Assembly: GCA_029287575.1 (NCBI GenBank)
Contig: JARFQW010000188.1
Location: 19,365-83,364 of the forward strand
DNA: 64,000 nt
Direction: 5' to 3'
DNA from: Gammaproteobacteria bacterium
GTDB taxonomy: Bacteria > Pseudomonadota > Gammaproteobacteria > Steroidobacterales > XN24
Shown: piece by piece, positions 5,109-19,044 of the stretch
How the letters are laid out: the number at the start of each line of letters is the position of its first letter
Numbering within the stretch: position 1 is the stretch's first letter
Made by a program: the position numbers and the translations under genes
The notes under the pieces: generated by a model
Seen by the model: only the letters and a program-made list of their open reading frames with translations
What the model was told of the DNA's origin: nothing
Database searches by the model: none

Positions 5109-6442
5109 TGGCCGGAGGTTTCGCCGCTGGCCTTTTTCGGCCGGCGCCGCCGGCGTCGGCGCCCCGCCGGCTTGGGCTGGCTCACCGCCTGCTCCCGATC
5201 GCCGGGCCCCTGGGCCTGGATGTCCGTCCACCAGCGGGCCAGTTCCGGGTCCGCATCCCCCACCTCGGCGCGTAGCACGAGCAGATCGTAGGCGGCGCGG
5301 AAGCGCGGGTGGTCCAGCGCCTTGAGCGCCCGCTTGCCACGGGTCCGGGTCAGACGCGGCTGCATCATCTGGATGTCCTTCATCGGACTGGTGATACGCC
5401 GCGGGATCGCCACCGCCGACTGCTGGTCCCGCGCGATCTCGTCACAGGCGGTGCTCAGCGCCTGCATCGGTGTGTCTCCCGCGGCCCGGCGTTCGTCTGC
5501 CCGCGCCACGGCCGGGTGCCACAGGAATACACCGAAGAGGAACATCGGCGTCACCGGCTTGCCCTGGGCCACGCGGTCATCCGTGTTCTGCACGCCCCGG
5601 CGGACCAGCGCCTCGACGGCCTCGCCATTGGGCCCGTCGATTGCGGCGTCGGTCATCGGGAACAGATAGCGGAACAGACCGTAGTGCCTGAGCAGATCGA
5701 AGGAGCGCATGCCGTGGCCGGCCAGAAAGAGCTTAAGACTCTCATCAAAGAGCCGTGCGGGCGGCACGCTTTCCAGCAGGGGAGCCAGCTCGCGGATCGG
5801 CGCCTCGGTTTCCGGGCTGATCGCAAAATCCAGCTTGGCCGCAAGACGCACGCCGCGCAGCAGGCGAACCGGATCTTCCCGGTAGCGGTCCTCCGGCTCA
5901 CCGATGAGGCGCATCAGCTTGAGACCGACATCCTCCACGCCGGTCGTGTAGTCGCATATCGAGAAGTCGGCGATGTTGTAGTAAAGGGCGTTGACCGTGA
6001 AGTCCCGTCGCCAGACGTCCTCGTCGATCGTGCCGTAGCGATTATCCCGAAGGATGCGGCCCTCGCCGTCACGCACGAGCTCGCCGGCCTCGTCGTCCAT
6101 GTCCTCGGCCTCCTGGGCCGCCCGGAAGGTTGCCACCTCGATCACTTCGCGTCCGAAGTAGACATGCGCGAGCCGAAACCGCCGGCCGATCAGCCGGCAG
6201 TTGCGAAACAACTTCCGTACATCCTCCGGCCAGGCATCGGTGACCACGTCGAAATCTTTCGGCTCCCGACCGAGCATAAGATCCCGGACGCCGCCTCCTA
6301 CGAGGAAGGCCTGATAGCCGGCTTCCTTTAGCCGGTACAGGACCTTGAGGCAGTTCCGGGAGATCTGGGACCGGGAGATGCAGTGGTCAGGCCTGGGGAC
6401 GATCGTCGGGGCGTTGGTGTTGCTTTTCGCCTCCGAATTCAA
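5105..6442 (-). CDS. pcnB: poly(A) polymerase I PcnB
   Basis: Nucleotidyltransferase head FLVGGGVRDLMLGREPKDFDVVTD, RRDFTVNALYY, and an Arg-rich C-terminus. Conserved pcnB-folK order. Confidence 0.9.
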   Translation of the reverse strand: MNSEAKSNTNAPTIVPRPDHCISRSQISRNCLKVLYRLKEAGYQAFLVGGGVRDLMLGREPKDFDVVTDAWPEDVRKLFRNCRLIGRRFRLAHVYFGREVIEVATFRAAQEAEDMDDEAGELVRDGEGRILRDNRYGTIDEDVWRRDFTVNALYYNIADFSICDYTTGVEDVGLKLMRLIGEPEDRYREDPVRLLRGVRLAAKLDFAISPETEAPIRELAPLLESVPPARLFDESLKLFLAGHGMRSFDLLRHYGLFRYLFPMTDAAIDGPNGEAVEALVRRGVQNTDDRVAQGKPVTPMFLFGVFLWHPAVARADERRAAGDTPMQALSTACDEIARDQQSAVAIPRRITSPMKDIQMMQPRLTRTRGKRALKALDHPRFRAAYDLLVLRAEVGDADPELARWWTDIQAQGPGDREQAVSQPKPAGRRRRRRRPKKASGETSGQ

Positions 6443-6456
6443 TGCTCCGCATCCAG

Positions 6457-6484
6457 TTGTGCAAACTCAAGCGGCGCGTATAAT
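6457..6484 (+). promoter_or_regulatory. candidate sigma70 promoter for tRNA-Glu
   Basis: TTGTGC (6457-6462), a 16-nt spacer, then a perfect TATAAT (6479-6484), about 44 nt upstream of the tRNA 5' end. Confidence 0.4.
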
Positions 6485-6527
6485 ACCACGCCCTTCGCGT
6501 CTCCATGCCGCGAAATTCAGGCGCAGC

Positions 6528-6602
6528 GCTCCGTTCGTCTAGGGGTTAGGACACCGGCCTCTCACGCCGGTAACAGGGGTTCGAATCCCCTACGGAGCGC
6601 CA
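6528..6602 (+). tRNA. tRNA-Glu (anticodon CUC)
   Basis: GCTCCGT/ACGGAGC acceptor stem, TCGTCTAGGGGTTAGGAC D-arm, CCGGC-CTCTCAC-GCCGG anticodon arm, AGGGGTTCGAATCCCCT T-arm and encoded CCA. It aligns position-for-position with E. coli tRNA-Glu. Confidence 0.9.
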
Positions 6603-6871
6603 CTTTCCGCCGGTCACTGCCAGTTCACTTCCAGAAATGCGCGCCGGGCCGCGCTTGCGGAGGGGCCTGGTCACAACGGACCTCCGCAAGCCGGCGACCT
6701 TCTCCAGTCACCGGGAACCTACTGCACCTCGCTGGGCGCCACGACAGCAGCGTCGGGCCCTCTGTCCGGGAACCGCTATTGCGCTCGCACTCGGGCGGAA
6801 ATCGCCAGGGCTTCCGCAGAGCGGGCTTGGCTAGAGCGACCGGCGTTGCGAAACGATTCAACTGCTCCAAG

Positions 6872-6953
6872 GCCGCCATCTCCCGCCTGGCGCGCAAGCT
6901 GCGTTCCCACAAAGCGGCCACGAAAAAGTTGAATACCTAACACCGGCACCGTT
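6872..6953. repeat. direct repeat copy 1 (pairs with 8215-8310)
   Basis: GCCGCCATCTCCCGCCTGG...AAAAAGTTGAATACCTAACACCGGCACCGTT. It shares identical 12-nt and 16-nt cores and a similar upstream ~45 nt with copy 2. A GGCAC-cgtt-GTGCC hairpin follows. Confidence 0.6.
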
Positions 6954-7113
6954 GTGCCGAAAGTCTGTTGCAGCGAGCGGGCGCCCGGGCAAGACCAGCG
7001 GCCTACGAGGTAACATGAGCACGTACGTGCACTGACGGAATCGGCGGCTGAATTGTCCCGGTCCGACCTGTAGATGACCCGGCGAATCCAACAACAACAG
7101 AGCTAAACCCTTT

Positions 7114-8142
7114 ATGTTTGGCATCCACCCGCTCCGTCTGCTGCTGCGCATGGTGCTCTGCATCGGCGCAGCCCTGTTTGTGTTGTGGGCGGTTCTGGCC
7201 CTCTGGATTGATGGACCCGTCTCGCGCACGGCTGCCGGGCTCATCATCGGCATTCTGCTGGGGGCCCTGGCCGGGGCTGTCATCTGGATCCGCCCGTTCC
7301 GGCGATCTCTGGCAGCCGTTGTCGGCTTGTGTATCGCCGTGGCGGCCTGGTGGCTGACCCTTTCGCCCGCCAACGACCGCAACTGGCAGCCGAATGTGGC
7401 GCACCTGCCCACCGCGACCCTGGATGGTTCCCTACTGACCATCAACAATGTCCGCAGTTTCCGTTACGGGGATGACGAAGCAGACGCTCAAGAGCGCTGG
7501 ATCACCGCCACCTATGACCTCGATGAGCTGGTGGGTTTCGACATCTTCTTCTCTTTCTGGGGACCTCAGGCTTACGGCCACACCATCGCCAGCTGGGAGT
7601 TTGCTGATGGTCGCCACCTGGCGGTCTCGATCGAAACCCGCAAGGAGGTGGGCGAGTCCTATTCAGCATTGCGCGGCTTCTTCCGGCAGTTCGAACTCTA
7701 CTATGTGGTGGCAGAAGAGACAGATGTGGTGGCTCTGCGGACCAATCACCGCGGTGAGCGGGTAGAGCTGCATCGGATTTTCACCCCTGATGAGGGTGAT
7801 CGGGCCATGCTTCTCGACTATGTTCAAGACATCAACGAGCTGGCCGCGAATCCCCGCTGGTACAACGCGCTGACCCAGAACTGCACCACAACCATCTGGA
7901 AACACGCCAAAGCAGTTGGCTCAAGTTTCCCGCTGGACTGGCGGCTGCTGGCCAACGGCTATGTCCTTGAACTGGCCTATCAGCTGGGCACCGTCAACAG
8001 CACGGTGAGCCTCGATGAGCTGAGACGGCGCAGCGACATTACCAAGCTCGCCATACAGAACGGCGACAGTGGTGATTTTTCCAGGAATATTCGCCAGGAA
8101 CTGCTCGAGCGGCCCACAGCCTTTCCGGCCCCACGCCCCTAG
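7114..8142 (+). CDS. DUF4105 (Lnb N-terminal periplasmic domain) family membrane protein
   Basis: N-terminal TM helices are followed by NDRNWQPN..., SIETRKEVGESYSALRGFFRQFELYYVVAEETDVVALRTNHRGE and WYNALTQNCTT. These strings are characteristic of DUF4105 as I remember the family. Confidence 0.7.
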   Translation: MFGIHPLRLLLRMVLCIGAALFVLWAVLALWIDGPVSRTAAGLIIGILLGALAGAVIWIRPFRRSLAAVVGLCIAVAAWWLTLSPANDRNWQPNVAHLPTATLDGSLLTINNVRSFRYGDDEADAQERWITATYDLDELVGFDIFFSFWGPQAYGHTIASWEFADGRHLAVSIETRKEVGESYSALRGFFRQFELYYVVAEETDVVALRTNHRGERVELHRIFTPDEGDRAMLLDYVQDINELAANPRWYNALTQNCTTTIWKHAKAVGSSFPLDWRLLANGYVLELAYQLGTVNSTVSLDELRRRSDITKLAIQNGDSGDFSRNIRQELLERPTAFPAPRP

Positions 8143-13488: not shown

Positions 13489-15138
13489 ATGTCCAGGCCA
13501 ACTGTTCGGGTAGAGAACGGCGCCGTCTCGCCCGCGCCGCGTGGCGCAACTTCGCACCGCGGCCGCGGTGACACCGGGTACACCCGGCTGTTGTTCCGAG
13601 TCGACGTCCCGGGACCCGTGCGCCGCAAGCCCGGAGCGCCGGTCGAGGCGCTCGAGGATCTGCTGGGCAAGGCATTCAGGGACCTTCGGTGCCGCTGGCC
13701 CGGCGTGGCCTTCGGCTTTGCCTTTGCGGTATCCGCCGAGAAGGTCAACGCGGCCAGTCCCCGTTCGACGTTCGACGACACCCGCAACCGGTATTTCTAT
13801 GCCTGGGTGCCGTTCGACACCTCGCTTGCCGGGTTCGTGCCGGACCTGGCGGTCCTTGCAGGCGTCGATTCGGCGAGCGTATCCGCGGACCCGCCGGTTA
13901 CCGTCTGGGAACCGCTGGCGGACCTGGATCCGGACGACGCCGCCGCGGAGTTCGACGCCTTCAGCCAGGCCTGGGCGGGGCCGGCGGGCATCAACGCCGT
14001 GAAGGCCTGGGCCTACGCGGGCGCCCGGGGCGAGGACATGACGATTGCCGACCTGGAACAGGGCTGGACCCTGGATCACATCGATCTCTACGACACCGGC
14101 AATCCCGACCGGATCCGCCGGGTATTCGGTCTGAACCAGGCCTACATGGGTCACGGTACGGCGGTCCTCGGCATCCTCGCGGCCAGGGAGGACGGCAAGG
14201 GCTGCACGGGTGCGGTGCCCGCGGCCCGGATCCGCTGTTATTCCCTCATCGAGGACTCCGGCTGGGACCTGCCCCTGCAGTGGGCCATCGATGCGGCGGT
14301 CTGGGGAGTCGATCCGCTGATCGCGCTCCGCGGCGAAGCCCCGGGCACGGGTGACGGACCTACCGCGGCCGGCGTCCATCCGCTGGAAAAAGGCGACATC
14401 CTGCTGATCGAAGACCAGGGAAGTCTGCCGGCCCTGGACGTAACCGGCGTTCCCGCCGAAGTGCAGCTGCCGGTCTTCATTGCGATTCAGGACGCGACCA
14501 GCCGCGAGATTACCGTGATCGAGCCGGCGGGTAACGGGAGCGTGGATCTCGATGACCTGGCCGGTCAGCCCGGAGTGGCGGGACTCGGAAGCGGAGCCGA
14601 GGACAGCGGCGCGATAGTCGTTGGCGCAAGCACCGCCGGCGGGTTCCGCGAGCGCCTGGACTCGTCGTGCTTTGGCGGCCGCGTCGACTGCCATGCCTGG
14701 GGTGAGGGCGTGTTTACGACCGGCGACGGCTGGGAGGGCAACGACCGGTTCTGCTACACACTGTTCGGCGGCACATCGGCGGCCGCCGCACAGGTGGCCG
14801 CCGCCGCGGCTGCCGTGCAGGGGGCCCACCGGCTGTTCAATGGCGCGACGCTGAATCCCGCGGACCTGCGTCAGGCCTTGAAGGACGCCGGTCAGCGTTC
14901 CCTCAATCCGGCCAACGACCGCATCGGCGTCATGCCCGACACCTACGGCACGATCCGGGCCTTCGCCGGCGAACCGCCGGGCACTACGCCCGCCTATCCG
15001 GATCCCGCGGACAACGATTTGTCGGACGTTGTCCTGTGCGGCGTCGCATACGACGAATTCGACGCACCGGCACCGGCCCTGGCCCCGGTATTCTTCGTGC
15101 TCGGACTGCTCGCCGGCATCGTCCTCATGCTCATATAG
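13489..15138 (+). CDS. S8 (subtilisin-like) serine peptidase with C-terminal transmembrane helix and no signal peptide
   Basis: Catalytic triad contexts are IADLEQGW (Asp), MGHGTAVLGI (His), PAGNGS (oxyanion Asn) and FGGTSAAAAQVAAAAA (Ser). GGGAGGAG lies 8 nt before the ATG. The last 18 aa, VFFVLGLLAGIVLMLI, are hydrophobic. The 592-aa antisense ORF is a shadow. Confidence 0.8.
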   Translation: MSRPTVRVENGAVSPAPRGATSHRGRGDTGYTRLLFRVDVPGPVRRKPGAPVEALEDLLGKAFRDLRCRWPGVAFGFAFAVSAEKVNAASPRSTFDDTRNRYFYAWVPFDTSLAGFVPDLAVLAGVDSASVSADPPVTVWEPLADLDPDDAAAEFDAFSQAWAGPAGINAVKAWAYAGARGEDMTIADLEQGWTLDHIDLYDTGNPDRIRRVFGLNQAYMGHGTAVLGILAAREDGKGCTGAVPAARIRCYSLIEDSGWDLPLQWAIDAAVWGVDPLIALRGEAPGTGDGPTAAGVHPLEKGDILLIEDQGSLPALDVTGVPAEVQLPVFIAIQDATSREITVIEPAGNGSVDLDDLAGQPGVAGLGSGAEDSGAIVVGASTAGGFRERLDSSCFGGRVDCHAWGEGVFTTGDGWEGNDRFCYTLFGGTSAAAAQVAAAAAAVQGAHRLFNGATLNPADLRQALKDAGQRSLNPANDRIGVMPDTYGTIRAFAGEPPGTTPAYPDPADNDLSDVVLCGVAYDEFDAPAPALAPVFFVLGLLAGIVLMLI

Positions 15139-15149
15139 CAGGGCCTGTT

Positions 15150-15169
15150 TCGACCGGGGCACCGGTCGA
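15150..15169. terminator. hairpin between convergent S8 peptidase gene and the 52-codon ORF
   Basis: TCGACCGG-ggca-CCGGTCGA is a perfect 8-bp stem. A third CCGGTCGA copy at 15181-15188 allows an alternative pairing. Confidence 0.5.
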
Positions 15170-15190
15170 GACCGACACCTCCGGTCGACG

Positions 15191-15349
15191 CTATCCGGTA
15201 CTCCGGATCACGAGCATCAGCACAATGCCCGCAAGCAGGCCCAGCACGAACCAGATGGCCTGCATGCGCGTCTGCACGGACTCCCAGCCCGACGGCGGTG
15301 GTTTTCTGGGCCGGTCTCCCGGCGGCGGTTTTCTTGGTCTGTCTCCCAT
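15191..15349 (-). CDS. 52-aa proline/arginine-rich tail-anchored membrane protein (below the 60-aa cutoff, so absent from the ORF track)
   Basis: My hand translation is MGDRPRKPPPGDRPRKPPPSGWESVQTRMQAIWFVLGLLAGIVLMLVIRSTG*. GGGAGGTGG lies 6-7 nt before the ATG. The ORF sits 36 nt downstream of the TPR regulator gene on the same strand. Its TM helix matches the S8 anchor at 13/13 residues, and all 7 nucleotide differences are synonymous. Confidence 0.6.
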   Translation of the reverse strand: MGDRPRKPPPGDRPRKPPPSGWESVQTRMQAIWFVLGLLAGIVLMLVIRSTG

Positions 15350-15385
15350 CGGCTCCACCTCCCTTGGGTGTTGCGGTTGCCGGCG

Positions 15386-17707
15386 CTAGCTGGCCGGCGC
15401 TCCGGTCAGGGCCCGGAAGCGGTCCGAAGACCACAGGCCCTCCCAGCGCGGATCTGCCACCAGGTACTCCGGGTTATAGCCAAGCGATACGGCCTGTTCC
15501 AGCGCATCGATAGCGGGATCGGTGTCGTTACTGCGGGCCAGAACGAGGGCGCGCGCGGCATGGCCATCCGGAGCGCGCGGCGCCAGTTCGATCGCCCGGT
15601 CGGCGCTCCTCAGGGCCTCGGGCAAGCGGCCTGCCTGGGAAAGGTACCGGGCCAGATCTGCGTGCACCATGGCGTCGGCCGGTGTCTGGACCGCCGCCTG
15701 TCCGGCCAGGTCGATGGCCCGAAGCAGACTGTCCCGGGCCAGGGCTTCCTCCCCGGGGACAAACGCAGCCGCCTCGGCCAGTTCCCCCCATGTCCAGTAG
15801 GCATCCGGGGCCAGCCGGGCCGCCTCTCTGAAGGCATCGACGGCATCGGCCATGCGCTCGCCGAAATAGATCTCGCCGAGATTGGCCCACGCGAAAACCG
15901 TGGGCTCGATCTCCAGGGAGCGCCGAAACGCCGCTTCGGCCTCCGCGTCGTTGCCGGTATCCAGCAGGCCCGCGCCAAGCGAGGTCCAGGCATCGGCGCT
16001 GTCCCCCTTGAGTTCGACCACCTTGCGGTAGTACGGCAGGGCCTCCCGGCCCCGCCCCACGTTCACGAGAAAATGCCCCATGGCCGTGTAGCTGCCCCAG
16101 TAGGACGGGTCGATCGCGATAGCCGCGCTGTAGGCCTCGTAAGCCTCATCGGGCCGGTTGCGGGCGTACAGCACGTCGCCGAGACCGTACCGGGCCTCGA
16201 TCAGATTCGGAAACGACGCCAGCGCCAGCCGGTACTCGTCCTCGGCCGCCGCCAGCCGTCCGGTCAGCCGATACAGCGCGCCCCGTGCCGCATGGGTCTC
16301 CGCAAAATCCGGATCCAGCGCCGTGGCCTCGGCACAGGCATTCTCCGCCCGGGTCAGCAGCGCGCCCGTTCGGTTGCGCCGGTAGCGGTGTACGGCCAGG
16401 TCGCATTCGGCCGCGCGCGCCGGCCCGTAGCCGGGGTCCAGCTCGACGCTCTGGGTCAGGAGACGTTCGGCCGTATCCAGGGCATCAGGAGTCTTCGGTT
16501 CCCGAAGAAGCTGGCGTGCCTGAAGATAGAGGTCATAGGCACCCAGCCCCGTGACCGGGGCCGGGTCCGTGGCGGGCCCTGTCAGGACCACGCCGAGGGC
16601 GGCCAGTACCTCCCGGGCGACGTCCTGGCTCACCTGGGAGACGGCGGGTCCGGTCGCAGTAAAGGTCTCCGCCCAGAGCGACAAACCCTCGCGCCCGTCG
16701 GCCAGGCTGACCGCGAGGGTGATTTCGTCGCCCTCGCGCGTGACGGTGCCTTCCAGCACCGCCCCAACACCGAGTCGGCCGGCGATGGCGGGGACGTCAC
16801 CGCCCTGGGCCGCGTGGTAGCGGGCCGAGCGCCATGAAGCCACGCGAAGCGCGTCGTGGTGCATCAGCCGATTGGTCAGTTCTTCCGCCAGTCCCTCCGC
16901 CAGTCCGGCCCCCCCGTCGGGATTGCGCGGGCCGGCAAAAGGCAATACCGCCACGGTCGGTTCGGACCCAACAACGGCGACCGGCACCCGTGCGGCGGCT
17001 TCGGAGGCTTCGCGGGGTACGGCCGAACGTTCGTGGAACAACCAGCCCGCGGCTCCCGAAATCACGAGGCCGGCCAGACCCAGGGACACGGCGACGCCGC
17101 GATTGCGGCTCTCCGACGGTGCGGGGGAGGATGTCGCCCAGCCCAGAACCAGCGCCAGCGGGAACCCCAGGGCCAGCACGGCCACGACGAACGTCAGCGT
17201 CCAGTCCGGCAGCCCGAGAGCCGGAAACACGGTCTCGGCGACCTGCACGAGCAGCCAGGCCAGAGCGCCATAGACGGCAGCCACCCGAAGGATATGCCCC
17301 CGAGACGCGCGAGCCGGCCCGGGAGCGGCTTGCGCCGGCGGCGAGGCCGGATCGGGCCCGGATTGTGCATCGCCGGCGGCCGCGGGCCGTGGAGTCACCA
17401 GGAGCCGGTAGCCCCGTTTCGGGAGTGTTTGCACGAAGCGCGGCTCGTGGGCATCGTCGGCGAGCGCCTGGCGCAGGTCCGATACACAGCGCGTAAGCGG
17501 CTGCATGCTCGGATAGCCCGGCCGCCAGACGTCGTGCAGCAGCGTTTCCCTGGACACCACCTCGCCGGGCTCCCGGGCGAGACGCAGCAGCACCTCCATG
17601 GCCTTGGGTTGCACATGGCGGGTTCCCCGGGGCCCTTCGATTTCGCCCAGCAGCGGGCGCACCTGGAAGTCTCCCAGGGCAAAACCGTTGAGCAGTTGCT
17701 CCTGCAT
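15386..17707 (-). CDS. ToxR/CadC-like membrane transcriptional regulator (winged helix + TM segments + TolB-N-like domain + TPR repeats)
   Basis: The N-terminus FQVRPLLGEIEGPRGTRHVQPKAMEVLLRLAREPGEVVSRETLLHDVW...VSDLRQAL..FVQTLPKRGYRL is an OmpR/CadC-type wHTH. Hydrophobic segments follow at ~aa 150-230, then many TPR-like repeats. ATG 17707 is preferred over GTG 17770, which has no SD. Confidence 0.75.
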   Translation of the reverse strand: MQEQLLNGFALGDFQVRPLLGEIEGPRGTRHVQPKAMEVLLRLAREPGEVVSRETLLHDVWRPGYPSMQPLTRCVSDLRQALADDAHEPRFVQTLPKRGYRLLVTPRPAAAGDAQSGPDPASPPAQAAPGPARASRGHILRVAAVYGALAWLLVQVAETVFPALGLPDWTLTFVVAVLALGFPLALVLGWATSSPAPSESRNRGVAVSLGLAGLVISGAAGWLFHERSAVPREASEAAARVPVAVVGSEPTVAVLPFAGPRNPDGGAGLAEGLAEELTNRLMHHDALRVASWRSARYHAAQGGDVPAIAGRLGVGAVLEGTVTREGDEITLAVSLADGREGLSLWAETFTATGPAVSQVSQDVAREVLAALGVVLTGPATDPAPVTGLGAYDLYLQARQLLREPKTPDALDTAERLLTQSVELDPGYGPARAAECDLAVHRYRRNRTGALLTRAENACAEATALDPDFAETHAARGALYRLTGRLAAAEDEYRLALASFPNLIEARYGLGDVLYARNRPDEAYEAYSAAIAIDPSYWGSYTAMGHFLVNVGRGREALPYYRKVVELKGDSADAWTSLGAGLLDTGNDAEAEAAFRRSLEIEPTVFAWANLGEIYFGERMADAVDAFREAARLAPDAYWTWGELAEAAAFVPGEEALARDSLLRAIDLAGQAAVQTPADAMVHADLARYLSQAGRLPEALRSADRAIELAPRAPDGHAARALVLARSNDTDPAIDALEQAVSLGYNPEYLVADPRWEGLWSSDRFRALTGAPAS

Positions 17708-17753
17708 ACGGGTCCCCGTTGCAATGGGCAAAGTATAGCGGCCGCTGGCCGCA

Positions 17754-18938
17754 TCAAGCCGAACCCGCACGCCGCGGCGCCGCGGCGACCACCGGGCAAT
17801 GCTCGAGGGGCACCGGGTAGTCCGCCAGCTCCACCGTCGGCTGGAACTGTCCGGCCAGCTCGTCGACGAGACGTCGCCATGCCTCGGGGCTATCGGGAAT
17901 CGGACCCTCCGCTTCCGCTGCCCAGACCTGGTCGCCTGTACGCGTATCGCTCAGACGGACAATGACGCGGACACGACCGCCCACGACGTTGACCAGCCCG
18001 TTGAGGGCCAGGTCCGCCGGCGCTCCGGCGGAGCGCACCCGCATGCCGGGGACCGCTGCGAGCCGCAGTCTGACCTCTTCGGTCAGGCTGTGGGACAAGG
18101 CCCTCGCCGTCACGATCCGGCCGGCGGCGTCGAAGGGCTCGACGACAACGGCCGCCGGCGCCGGTCCCGATCCCGCGGCTTCGGGGCCGAGCCAGGCGGC
18201 GCCACCGGAGGAAACGAGATTGGCGGTCAGCACCACCGTGCAGAGCACGAGCAGCAGCGCGCGCGAAGCCAGCGTTCCGACAAAGCGGAACGGGCTGACG
18301 ATCGGCCTCTCCCGGGGTGCCCTGCGCACGCGGCCGGCATCGATATCGAATGCCCAGGCCAGCGCCACACTGACCGGGAACCCCAGGGCCAGCGTGACGA
18401 CCACAAAGGTGATGGCCCAGTCCGGAACGAGCACGATCGGGAAGACGGTAGCGGATACCTCCGTGGCGACCCACGCGAAAATCACGTAGGCCAGGGCCAC
18501 CCGGACCACCCGGCGGCGGCGAAGCTCCGCCCAGAGACCGGGCGCGGACCCGCGAGAGGCAGGGCCAGGCCCGACCGTATTGCCGTCCGGGCCCGGCGGC
18601 TCGTCAGCGGGCAAGGCGGACACCGGCGCGAGCAGCCGGTAGCCCCGCTTCGGCAGGGTCTGGATGATGGCCGGCGCGTGGGCCTGGTCCCGAAGCGCGT
18701 GACGGATTTCGCTGATGACATGGGTCAGGGCATGGTCACCCACCGGCTCACGGGACCAGATCTCGGCCAGCAGGGTTTCCCGGCTGACGAGCAGCCCGGG
18801 ACGCTCCGCCAGGAACACCAGGACACGCATCGCCCGGGGATGCAGGCGCACCGGGCCATGCGGCCCGAAAATCTCACCGGTCCGAGGCTCGACCCGGAAG
18901 GGGCCGATCCGGAAGACACTGGGCAGTGGCTGGCGCAT
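17754..18938 (-). CDS. ToxR/CadC-like membrane transcriptional regulator (paralog of the downstream gene, no TPR)
   Basis: FRIGPFRVEPRTGEIFGPHGPVRLHPRAMRVLVFLAERPGLLVSRETLLAEIW...ISEIRHAL...IIQTLPKRGYRL, followed by the same VALAYVIFAWVATEV..PDWAITFVVVTLALGFPV membrane block as its neighbour. GAGGAA precedes ATG 18938. Confidence 0.7.
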   Translation of the reverse strand: MRQPLPSVFRIGPFRVEPRTGEIFGPHGPVRLHPRAMRVLVFLAERPGLLVSRETLLAEIWSREPVGDHALTHVISEIRHALRDQAHAPAIIQTLPKRGYRLLAPVSALPADEPPGPDGNTVGPGPASRGSAPGLWAELRRRRVVRVALAYVIFAWVATEVSATVFPIVLVPDWAITFVVVTLALGFPVSVALAWAFDIDAGRVRRAPRERPIVSPFRFVGTLASRALLLVLCTVVLTANLVSSGGAAWLGPEAAGSGPAPAAVVVEPFDAAGRIVTARALSHSLTEEVRLRLAAVPGMRVRSAGAPADLALNGLVNVVGGRVRVIVRLSDTRTGDQVWAAEAEGPIPDSPEAWRRLVDELAGQFQPTVELADYPVPLEHCPVVAAAPRRAGSA

Positions 18939-19044
18939 GGGAATTCCTCGTTTCGGACCTGGTGAGCCGACCCTAGGCGCCCACGGGAGAGGTATCAACG
19001 CAACTCCATGACAAATAACAAAAAAATTAGACAAACGTAGAGAT

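Follow-up and report, generated by a model that had tools for sequence, protein, structure and literature searches.

Comparative evidence for a lineage-restricted bacterial micro-protein whose predicted membrane helix duplicates the tail anchor of a neighbouring subtilase

Introduction

Why should a very short open reading frame (ORF) repeat the last membrane helix of the protease gene that converges on it? The question is raised by a 64-kb stretch of gammaproteobacterial DNA (contig JARFQW010000188.1; hereafter the window, whose positions serve as coordinates throughout), in which a 52-codon ORF on the minus strand lies between the gene of a membrane-bound regulator and the convergent gene of an S8 (subtilisin-family) peptidase. 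From the letters of the window, this ORF had been predicted to encode a translated and selected micro-protein that could pair with the peptidase in the membrane as a partner, inhibitor or adaptor. On comparative evidence, we hold with high confidence that a real micro-protein gene lies here, that it is under selection and that its helix has a paralog in the peptidase; the pairing itself is a more cautious proposition, which we weigh here against its rivals.

Two groups of proteins frame the question. In bacteria, small membrane proteins act as regulators of larger ones, which they contact in the membrane; MgtR and MgtS, for example, modulate FtsH-dependent turnover (PMC12648545). MicroProteins, in turn, are small and have a single domain, which shares its ancestry with the domain used by a larger protein for interaction; they work as heteromers with that protein (PMC9638782).

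The locus and the encoded micro-protein

The following features are central to the argument:

15191-15349, minus strand: micro-protein gene, 52 codons plus stop, recognized as an ORF with its translation and by intact orthologs in seven lineages
15355-15363, minus strand: GGGAGGTGG as Shine-Dalgarno sequence, evident by inspection and separated from the ATG by 5 nt; its AGGAGG-like motif is conserved and its spacing constant
15293-15346, minus strand: two tandem 27-nt units, each encoding GDRPRKPPP, which form a basic tail with two PPP motifs and are present in all lineages
15212-15250, minus strand: helix arm of the micro-protein, FVLGLLAGIVLML, with the GxxxG motif G-LLA-G
13489-15138, plus strand: S8 peptidase of 549 residues, with a pro-domain-like N-terminus, a catalytic domain, an acidic linker and a tail anchor
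15094-15132, plus strand: helix arm of the peptidase, the last 13 residues but one, in the C-terminal tail anchor
15386-17770, minus strand: CadC/ToxR-like membrane regulator with a winged helix-turn-helix (wHTH), hydrophobic segments and tetratricopeptide repeats (TPR), recognized by the Pfam families Trans_reg_C and TPR and by an NCBIfam CadC N-terminal match

The ORF, its ribosome-binding site, the two inverted helix arms and the tandem repeat were all found where the original prediction had placed them, and it was likewise right about the strong Shine-Dalgarno sequence, the 36 nt that separate the regulator stop from the micro-protein gene and the convergence with the peptidase.

The ORF translates into MGDRPRKPPPGDRPRKPPPSGWESVQTRMQAIWFVLGLLAGIVLMLVIRSTG, followed by the stop codon. 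At 15358, a GTG in the same frame overlaps with the ribosome-binding site; since conservation among orthologs begins at the ATG (MGD...), we take the latter as the start codon. The tandem units at 15293-15319 and 15320-15346 differ by 4 nt in three codons (AGA/CGG, CCA/CCC, CCG/CCA), all of them synonymous, as had been read from the sequence before. About 60% of the micro-gene is visibly the product of local duplication, with 54 nt in the tandem repeat and 39-48 nt in the inverted one.

The membrane-helix call draws on three features: the hydrophobic stretch WFVLGLLAGIVLMLVI, the AlphaFold2 (AF2) model, in which residues 1-20 are non-helical and residues 21-51 form one long helix (predicted local distance difference test, pLDDT, 89-98), and the flanking charge, which in the window is +4 before the helix and +1 after it. 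Accordingly, the micro-protein is predicted to be a single-pass membrane protein with its N-terminus inside. It has the properties of small membrane proteins, i.e. a length of no more than about 60 codons, a start signal, conserved coding and one hydrophobic membrane-spanning helix, and candidate peptides for its detection include MQAIWFVLGLLAGIVLMLVIR and SGWESVQTR.

Of the seven lineages compared, six retain both PPP motifs; a further, partial contig (L013/P0004) reads KPQPS in the second unit. Because PPP stalls ribosomes unless they are rescued by elongation factor P (EF-P; PMC4176338), the micro-protein is probably made in an EF-P-sensitive manner. Six of seven lineages also keep two rare codons, AGA (Arg) and AAA (Lys), in each of the 27-nt units, in a neighbourhood of genes with a G+C content at third codon positions (GC3) of 0.80; this could reflect translation pacing before the PPP motifs or a constraint at the nucleotide level.

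Conservation and purifying selection

The 52-residue product is predicted by gene callers in at least seven independent near-identical assemblies, and searches with the small protein retrieved more divergent relatives at 67-96% protein identity. For an unbiased test of co-occurrence, the search was run with the peptidase as query, and the small ORF was then sought in the 3' flank of its orthologs (P0007-P0010; loci L008, L009, L011, L013, L014, L019 and L020; and L022, a locus of a metagenome-assembled genome, MAG). Every peptidase ortholog with a readable 3' flank is accompanied by an intact ORF of 52-56 codons in the same place and orientation, which bears out the predicted co-occurrence with the protease, and in each of these loci, across seven lineages, the small ORF sits between the TPR regulator and the convergent peptidase. 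The gap to the regulator is 13-45 nt, on the same strand, in all lineages; because it is short in every one of them, the micro-protein gene is probably co-transcribed with the regulator. The carriers belong to one narrow, uncultured gammaproteobacterial group, and the ortholog occurs in one GTDB species representative, an uncultured Gammaproteobacteria MAG (MFD03804.bin.1.13).

The pattern of change at the locus is that of a coding sequence. Upstream of the ORF, the AGGAGG-type ribosome-binding site is retained at proper spacing in all lineages, and the rest of the spacer is unalignable; downstream, the spacer between the convergent stops varies from 8 to 66 nt (52 nt in the window) and is likewise unalignable. 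Within the ORF, differences between orthologs are distributed 21/17/46 over the three codon positions (three phylogenetically independent pairs; chi-square p=1.5e-4), and the ratio of nonsynonymous to synonymous substitution rates (dN/dS) is 0.03-0.41, in agreement with the synonymous bias that a selected gene had been expected to display. The corresponding ratio of the proportions of nonsynonymous and synonymous differences (pN/pS) is 0.04-0.30 for the small ORF versus 0.25-0.42 for the peptidase, and it is lower for the small ORF in six of six genome pairs. Among the 25 invariant residues other than Met and Trp, 22 use at least two different codons across the lineages, and the tandem units, too, differ mostly at third positions wherever they occur. 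Five pairwise comparisons resolve this by module:

Repeat tail: pN 0-0.13, pS 0.40-0.86
Helix: pN 0.04-0.15, pS 0.25-0.49
14-residue linker: pN 0.33-0.58, pS 0.29-0.62

By these values, evolution of the linker is nearly neutral, with constraint confined to the repeat tail and the helix.

Intact ORFs in seven lineages, third-position bias, low pN/pS, a conserved ribosome-binding site and the independent gene-caller predictions lead us to conclude that 15191-15349 is, as originally claimed, a true protein-coding gene kept by purifying selection, and one that is confined to a narrow lineage; from the same features we infer that it is translated.

The family is an orphan by sequence. An exhaustive profile search of 1.84 billion representative proteins found three clusters of the family (at 50% identity) and three weak matches outside it, two of more than 1,200 residues and one of 79; word-indexed searches with a single sequence and with a profile found five clusters only. 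No family in Pfam, NCBIfam or PADLOC matches the micro-protein.

Two copies of one helix

The helix arms of micro-protein and peptidase form the longest inverted repeat of the region, with 32 of 39 nt matching, and both encode FVLGLLAGIVLML when read in their own coding frames. BLASTP aligns the micro-protein with the peptidase tail over 16 residues, of which 13 are identical and all 16 positive (E=1e-6); a third copy of the helix was not found in the 64-kb window. A further, weak resemblance between the two proteins, RKPPPGDRPRKP vs RVDVPGPVRRKP, was dismissed (E=8.9).

The 13/13 match and the seven mismatches, all at codon position 3, are thus as the original prediction had them, but the chance of (1/3)^7 that it attached to them was overstated, since the peptidase arm would admit only synonymous changes in any case and the changes in the small-ORF arm alone are informative. 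The match is also complete in the window rather than in general: within-genome identity of the two helices ranges from 10 to 13 of 13 residues across the related genomes. The GxxxG motif, to which the prediction had drawn attention, is invariant in both helices in all lineages; its glycines are G37 and G41 in the micro-protein and G539 and G543 in the peptidase. The micro-protein resembles a microProtein in that its one small domain has a counterpart in a larger protein, a relation that holds in every lineage.

How old is the second copy? In the window, 5 of the 12 codons that specify the same residue in both arms are identical, versus 5.0 expected from codon usage, and in five other lineages, 5-6 identical codons are observed versus 4.0-4.6 expected. 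The longest exact nucleotide run common to the arms is 7-12 nt in any genome, and the nearest neighbours of the arms are mostly their orthologs and not their genomic partners, i.e. they group by gene and not by genome. Because the silent sites are at random expectation and the arms group by gene, the duplication predates the split of the lineages, and the likeness of the helices has been maintained at the protein level; conversion between the arms at the DNA level seems to have been at most occasional and short. All peptidase orthologs with 65% identity or more have the C-terminus F[VLA]LG[LV]L[ATV]G[IV]VL[ML]L plus 1-4 residues, and the relatives that come next, at about 40% identity or below, do not; both tail anchor and micro-protein thus arose within one narrow lineage. 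From these comparisons, we conclude that the micro-protein acquired its helix long ago, by inverted duplication of the C-terminal tail anchor of the peptidase.

Since then, the copies have partly changed in parallel. In L008, both helices carry the replacement L5V, and T7A is found in the small protein of the window and of the L022 and L014 lineages and arose later in the peptidase of the window, which suggests co-evolution of the two helices. Among orthologs, the helix of the small protein is conserved at 10-13 of 13 positions and that of the peptidase at 8-13.

The peptidase and a proposed pairing

The peptidase is a regular member of its family by sequence and fold. It matches Pfam PF00082 with 46.3 bits (cut-off 21.8), its catalytic triad and oxyanion Asn (D188/H222/N349/S430) are invariant in 93 homologs, and its AF2 model (pLDDT 83) retrieves subtilisin folds with Foldseek (E ~1e-13). 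In this model, structured, pro-domain-like beta strands start at residue 6 and are followed by the subtilisin fold, a low-confidence acidic linker and a helix over residues 532-548. The protein has no signal peptide: its N-terminus is modelled as structured beta strands, and the ORF cannot be extended upstream. Because a signal peptide is absent and only 1-4 residues follow the helix, the peptidase is probably tail-anchored with a cytoplasmic catalytic domain. The linker before the anchor (15019-15093, residues ~511-535) is poorly conserved and yet consistently acidic; the 40 residues before the helix have a net charge of -3 to -9, with zero to two basic residues, in all lineages.

These properties lead us to propose the following mechanism. 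According to the positive-inside rule, the micro-protein, whose N-terminal flank has a net charge of +3 to +4 in all lineages, would insert with its N-terminus inside and its C-terminus outside. If the peptidase, as presumed, is held in the membrane by its tail and faces the cytoplasm with its catalytic domain, the two helices would run in parallel and could pack via their common GxxxG face, as a heterodimer that resembles a homodimer. Packing would place the basic, proline-rich tail of the micro-protein (+3 to +4) beside the acidic linker (-3 to -9) and the catalytic domain of the protease. In this position, the micro-protein might act as a membrane-helix mimic on the microProtein principle and compete with self-association of the protease or with binding of its partners; alternatively, it might present its tail as a pseudo-substrate or adaptor. 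The outcome would be a tuning of membrane-proximal proteolysis, possibly of the neighbouring regulators, with the micro-protein as inhibitor, adaptor or substrate. The common GxxxG motif, the predicted topology and the juxtamembrane charges make pairing plausible.

Taken as a whole, the chain in which a membrane-helix mimic pairs with the tail-anchored protease, or competes for its partners, and thereby tunes proteolysis seems to us about evenly poised between right and wrong. A fuller version is tentative and rather unlikely. It sees in the micro-protein a natural helix decoy that heterodimerizes with the cytoplasm-facing subtilase anchor, its polyproline tail gating cleavage of the adjacent ToxR/CadC-like regulators; the micro-gene would have arisen by inverted duplication of a 3' end plus a 27-nt tandem duplication, as a prokaryotic intramembrane microProtein with EF-P-dependent synthesis.

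Weighing the pairing against its rivals

Several points weigh against pairing. The range of 10-13 of 13 residues implies that exact identity of the helices is not required, and within-genome matching of the helices, compared with all 5040 pairings in a permutation test, is not significant (p=0.086), so that co-variation, which the original prediction had proposed as a check, is at most suggested. Independent purifying selection after the duplication, or a third partner common to both proteins, predicts the same pattern. Occasional conversion at the DNA level seems to contribute as well, judging from an excess of silent identity in one lineage, L019, and from three clustered changes in the peptidase of the window. 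The topology of the peptidase is a prediction, as are translation, membrane insertion and interaction of the micro-protein. All lineages are close relatives that keep synteny over ~10 kb, and therefore adjacency alone says little on function. The case is thus one of a narrow, uncultured lineage, a putative interaction and a weak co-variation signal.

In the strongest alternative, the gene is real and its helix nevertheless does not bind that of the peptidase, the two being conserved independently after the duplication, for instance because both dock on a common third partner such as the membrane segments of the regulators; or else the micro-protein serves the regulator in the manner of ToxS and TcpH. 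This would fit the position of the small ORF, which throughout the lineages follows the regulator on its strand at a distance of 13-45 nt, the evolution of the arms mostly as orthologs, the non-significant co-variation and the stronger conservation of the small-protein helix (10-13/13) compared with the peptidase helix (8-13/13). Plain anchors, however, rarely keep 10-13 of 13 residues in common with a paralog after their silent sites have been randomized, GxxxG is a self-complementary packing motif, and the charge complementarity between tail and protease linker is conserved; moreover, even with a common third partner, the micro-protein would compete with the protease. We regard this account as possible, if doubtful.

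Less probable still, and in our view unlikely, is a homogenization of the inverted repeats at the DNA level, by gene conversion or quasipalindrome-templated mutation, with no functional link between the proteins. The clearest trace of such a process is found in L019 (ena:ERZ1688200 k141_4434369), whose helix arms lie inside genes 7726-7887 (minus strand) and 6001-7659 (plus strand): 9 of its 10 same-residue codons are identical versus ~4 expected, which makes it the sole lineage of this kind and hints at a recent short gene conversion between the arms. Another trace is found in the window at 15112-15120 (peptidase helix codons 7-9), where ACC GGC GTG of the closest ortholog, L022, is replaced by GCC GGC ATC; these three changes within 9 nt all point toward the small-ORF arm (GCG GGC ATT) and could result from short-tract conversion, quasipalindrome-templated mutation or co-adaptation. 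Likewise, L008 has D-to-N in both tandem units as well as L-to-V in both helices. Yet six of seven lineages are near the expectation from codon usage (5-6 observed vs 4.0-5.0), exact runs of at most 12 nt are short for homologous recombination, the arms group by gene, and homogenization leaves both the low pN/pS of the non-duplicated parts of the ORF and the conserved ribosome-binding site unexplained.

It is very unlikely that the ORF encodes a type-I-toxin-like or otherwise autonomous small hydrophobic peptide whose likeness to the anchor is historical only. Its size and single hydrophobic helix would suit such a peptide, and the convergent neighbouring transcript could supply an antisense RNA, but the ribosome-binding site is strong, conserved and accessible, the gene stands in operon position behind a regulator, and its product keeps a non-hydrophobic tail rich in proline and arginine. 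No Rfam family was found in the region, and no match in the defence- and toxin-oriented PADLOC library.

We consider it extremely improbable that the common helix is a C-terminal sorting signal with a dedicated enzyme, as in PEP-CTERM/exosortase, GlyGly-CTERM/rhombosortase or LPXTG systems, and rejected this assignment. The likeness lies in the homologous helix near the C-terminus of two different proteins; in contrast to sorting domains, it has these two carriers only in the 64-kb window, no signature motif precedes it, no basic cluster follows it in the peptidase (1-4 residues), and neither protein has a signal peptide. A degenerate-codon scan of metagenome contigs yielded 11 stretches, of which one is this locus and ten belong to unrelated membrane proteins, with the motif mostly internal. 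Finally, we give next to no credence to a selected RNA or DNA hairpin, i.e. a terminator or attenuator built from the inverted repeat with an incidental ORF, and rejected an RNA element. The region indeed folds far better than its shuffles (z = -5.7 on the plus and -7.1 on the minus strand), but this reflects an inverted repeat with frame-periodic mismatches, which recur at every third base in all lineages without pairing being restored by compensatory change, while the 8-66 nt between the stops lack sequence conservation, the ORF parts outside the repeat are under purifying selection and the region has no Rfam match.

Neighbouring genes and further observations

The regulator at 15386-17770 is called as a protein of 773 residues in other assemblies. 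It stands in tandem with a second CadC/ToxR-like regulator (17754-19034, minus strand), and the maximal ORFs overlap by 17 nt. Both combine a wHTH with hydrophobic segments; the first has a long TPR domain and the second none. Wherever the contig of a relative extends far enough, the pair is conserved there too.

Between the convergent stops lies one further element, read directly and by folding:

15150-15169, no strand assigned: perfect 8-bp stem with a 4-nt loop (TCGACCGG GGCA CCGGTCGA)

It lacks a T-tract, is followed, within 15150-15189, by a further CCGGTCGAC copy and is a possible bidirectional terminator; it is not conserved, the spacer being completely different in orthologs. A promoter and terminator scan of 14900-15600 gave one terminator-like match, inside the peptidase gene, and nothing else useful. 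The sole Rfam match above the gathering score in the 64-kb window is a tRNA gene at 6528-6599 (plus strand).

Among the distant relatives of the peptidase (~40% identity or less), 4 of 10 inspected carry another C-terminal membrane module. P0019, P0026, P0027 and P0055, S8 relatives of 33-35% identity, have two hydrophobic segments that flank a C-I-K-C-G motif, and other relatives in the clade are fused to Amidase_3 or PG_binding_1. Judging from these sequences, this signal-peptide-less S8 clade seems to gain C-terminal membrane or cell-wall modules repeatedly. The defence-system library PADLOC gave nothing but a weak, generic subtilase match. One ortholog fragment, P0011 (ncbi, 328 residues), has an aberrant low-complexity tail, PPWSPPFLPSFLPHPSFFLSFFHI; this tail probably stems from an error of assembly or from a frameshift, and the fragment was excluded from the analysis.

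Discussion

By analogy, the functionally closest systems are the bacterial small membrane protein regulators, and the conceptually closest is the eukaryotic microProtein. The former, such as MgtR, MgtS, MgrB, AcrZ and SafA, resemble the micro-protein in having fewer than about 60 residues and a single membrane helix. However, they share no sequence similarity with it (it has no Pfam or NCBIfam matches), and their targets are, to our knowledge, polytopic transporters or kinases, whereas the presumed target here is a tail-anchored subtilase. Nor do we know of any among them that copies the sequence of a helix from the protein on which it acts. The plant and animal microProteins, e.g. LITTLE ZIPPER and Id, also have a single target-related domain, which corresponds here to a helix of 13-16 residues. 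The known representatives are eukaryotic and use soluble dimerization domains; here, a bacterium encodes the small protein, a membrane helix is the element in common and the pairing is putative.

Two further systems share parts of the arrangement. ToxS and TcpH are single-pass membrane proteins that are encoded directly downstream of a membrane-bound wHTH regulator and control its proteolysis, and their gene order matches that of the micro-protein locus. They are, however, ~140-170 residues long, have periplasmic domains and are not related to a protease, whereas the micro-protein, which does not resemble them in sequence, has 52 residues and a proline-rich tail that is predicted to be cytoplasmic. 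The mycosins (MycP) of type VII secretion, in turn, combine an S8 domain with a single C-terminal membrane helix that docks into a membrane complex. Theirs is the only NCBIfam model that matches the peptidase (TIGR03921), yet with 51.4 bits versus a cut-off of 278.75, for which reason we rejected membership; moreover, the peptidase lacks the signal peptide of the mycosins, whose protease domain is extracytoplasmic. Set against the closest systems, what differs here is a common domain that is a membrane helix, a bacterial host, a presumed target that is a tail-anchored subtilase and a micro-gene that stems visibly, for about 60% of its length, from local duplications.

Small membrane proteins are under-annotated, and it usually takes genetics to find out what they act on; at the present locus, a candidate target can be read from the sequence, since the helix of the micro-protein is a selected copy of a protease anchor. 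If the two helices do pair, bacteria would use the target-mimic logic of eukaryotic micro-proteins inside the membrane, and an inverted duplication of a gene end plus a tandem duplication would provide a simple route to the birth of a micro-gene. A search rule would follow from this, namely to look for small ORFs that carry the helix of a neighbour with differing silent sites. We know of no described function for a tail-anchored intracellular subtilase beside ToxR-like regulators; the pairing would add such a protease, and a regulated one, to the known repertoire.

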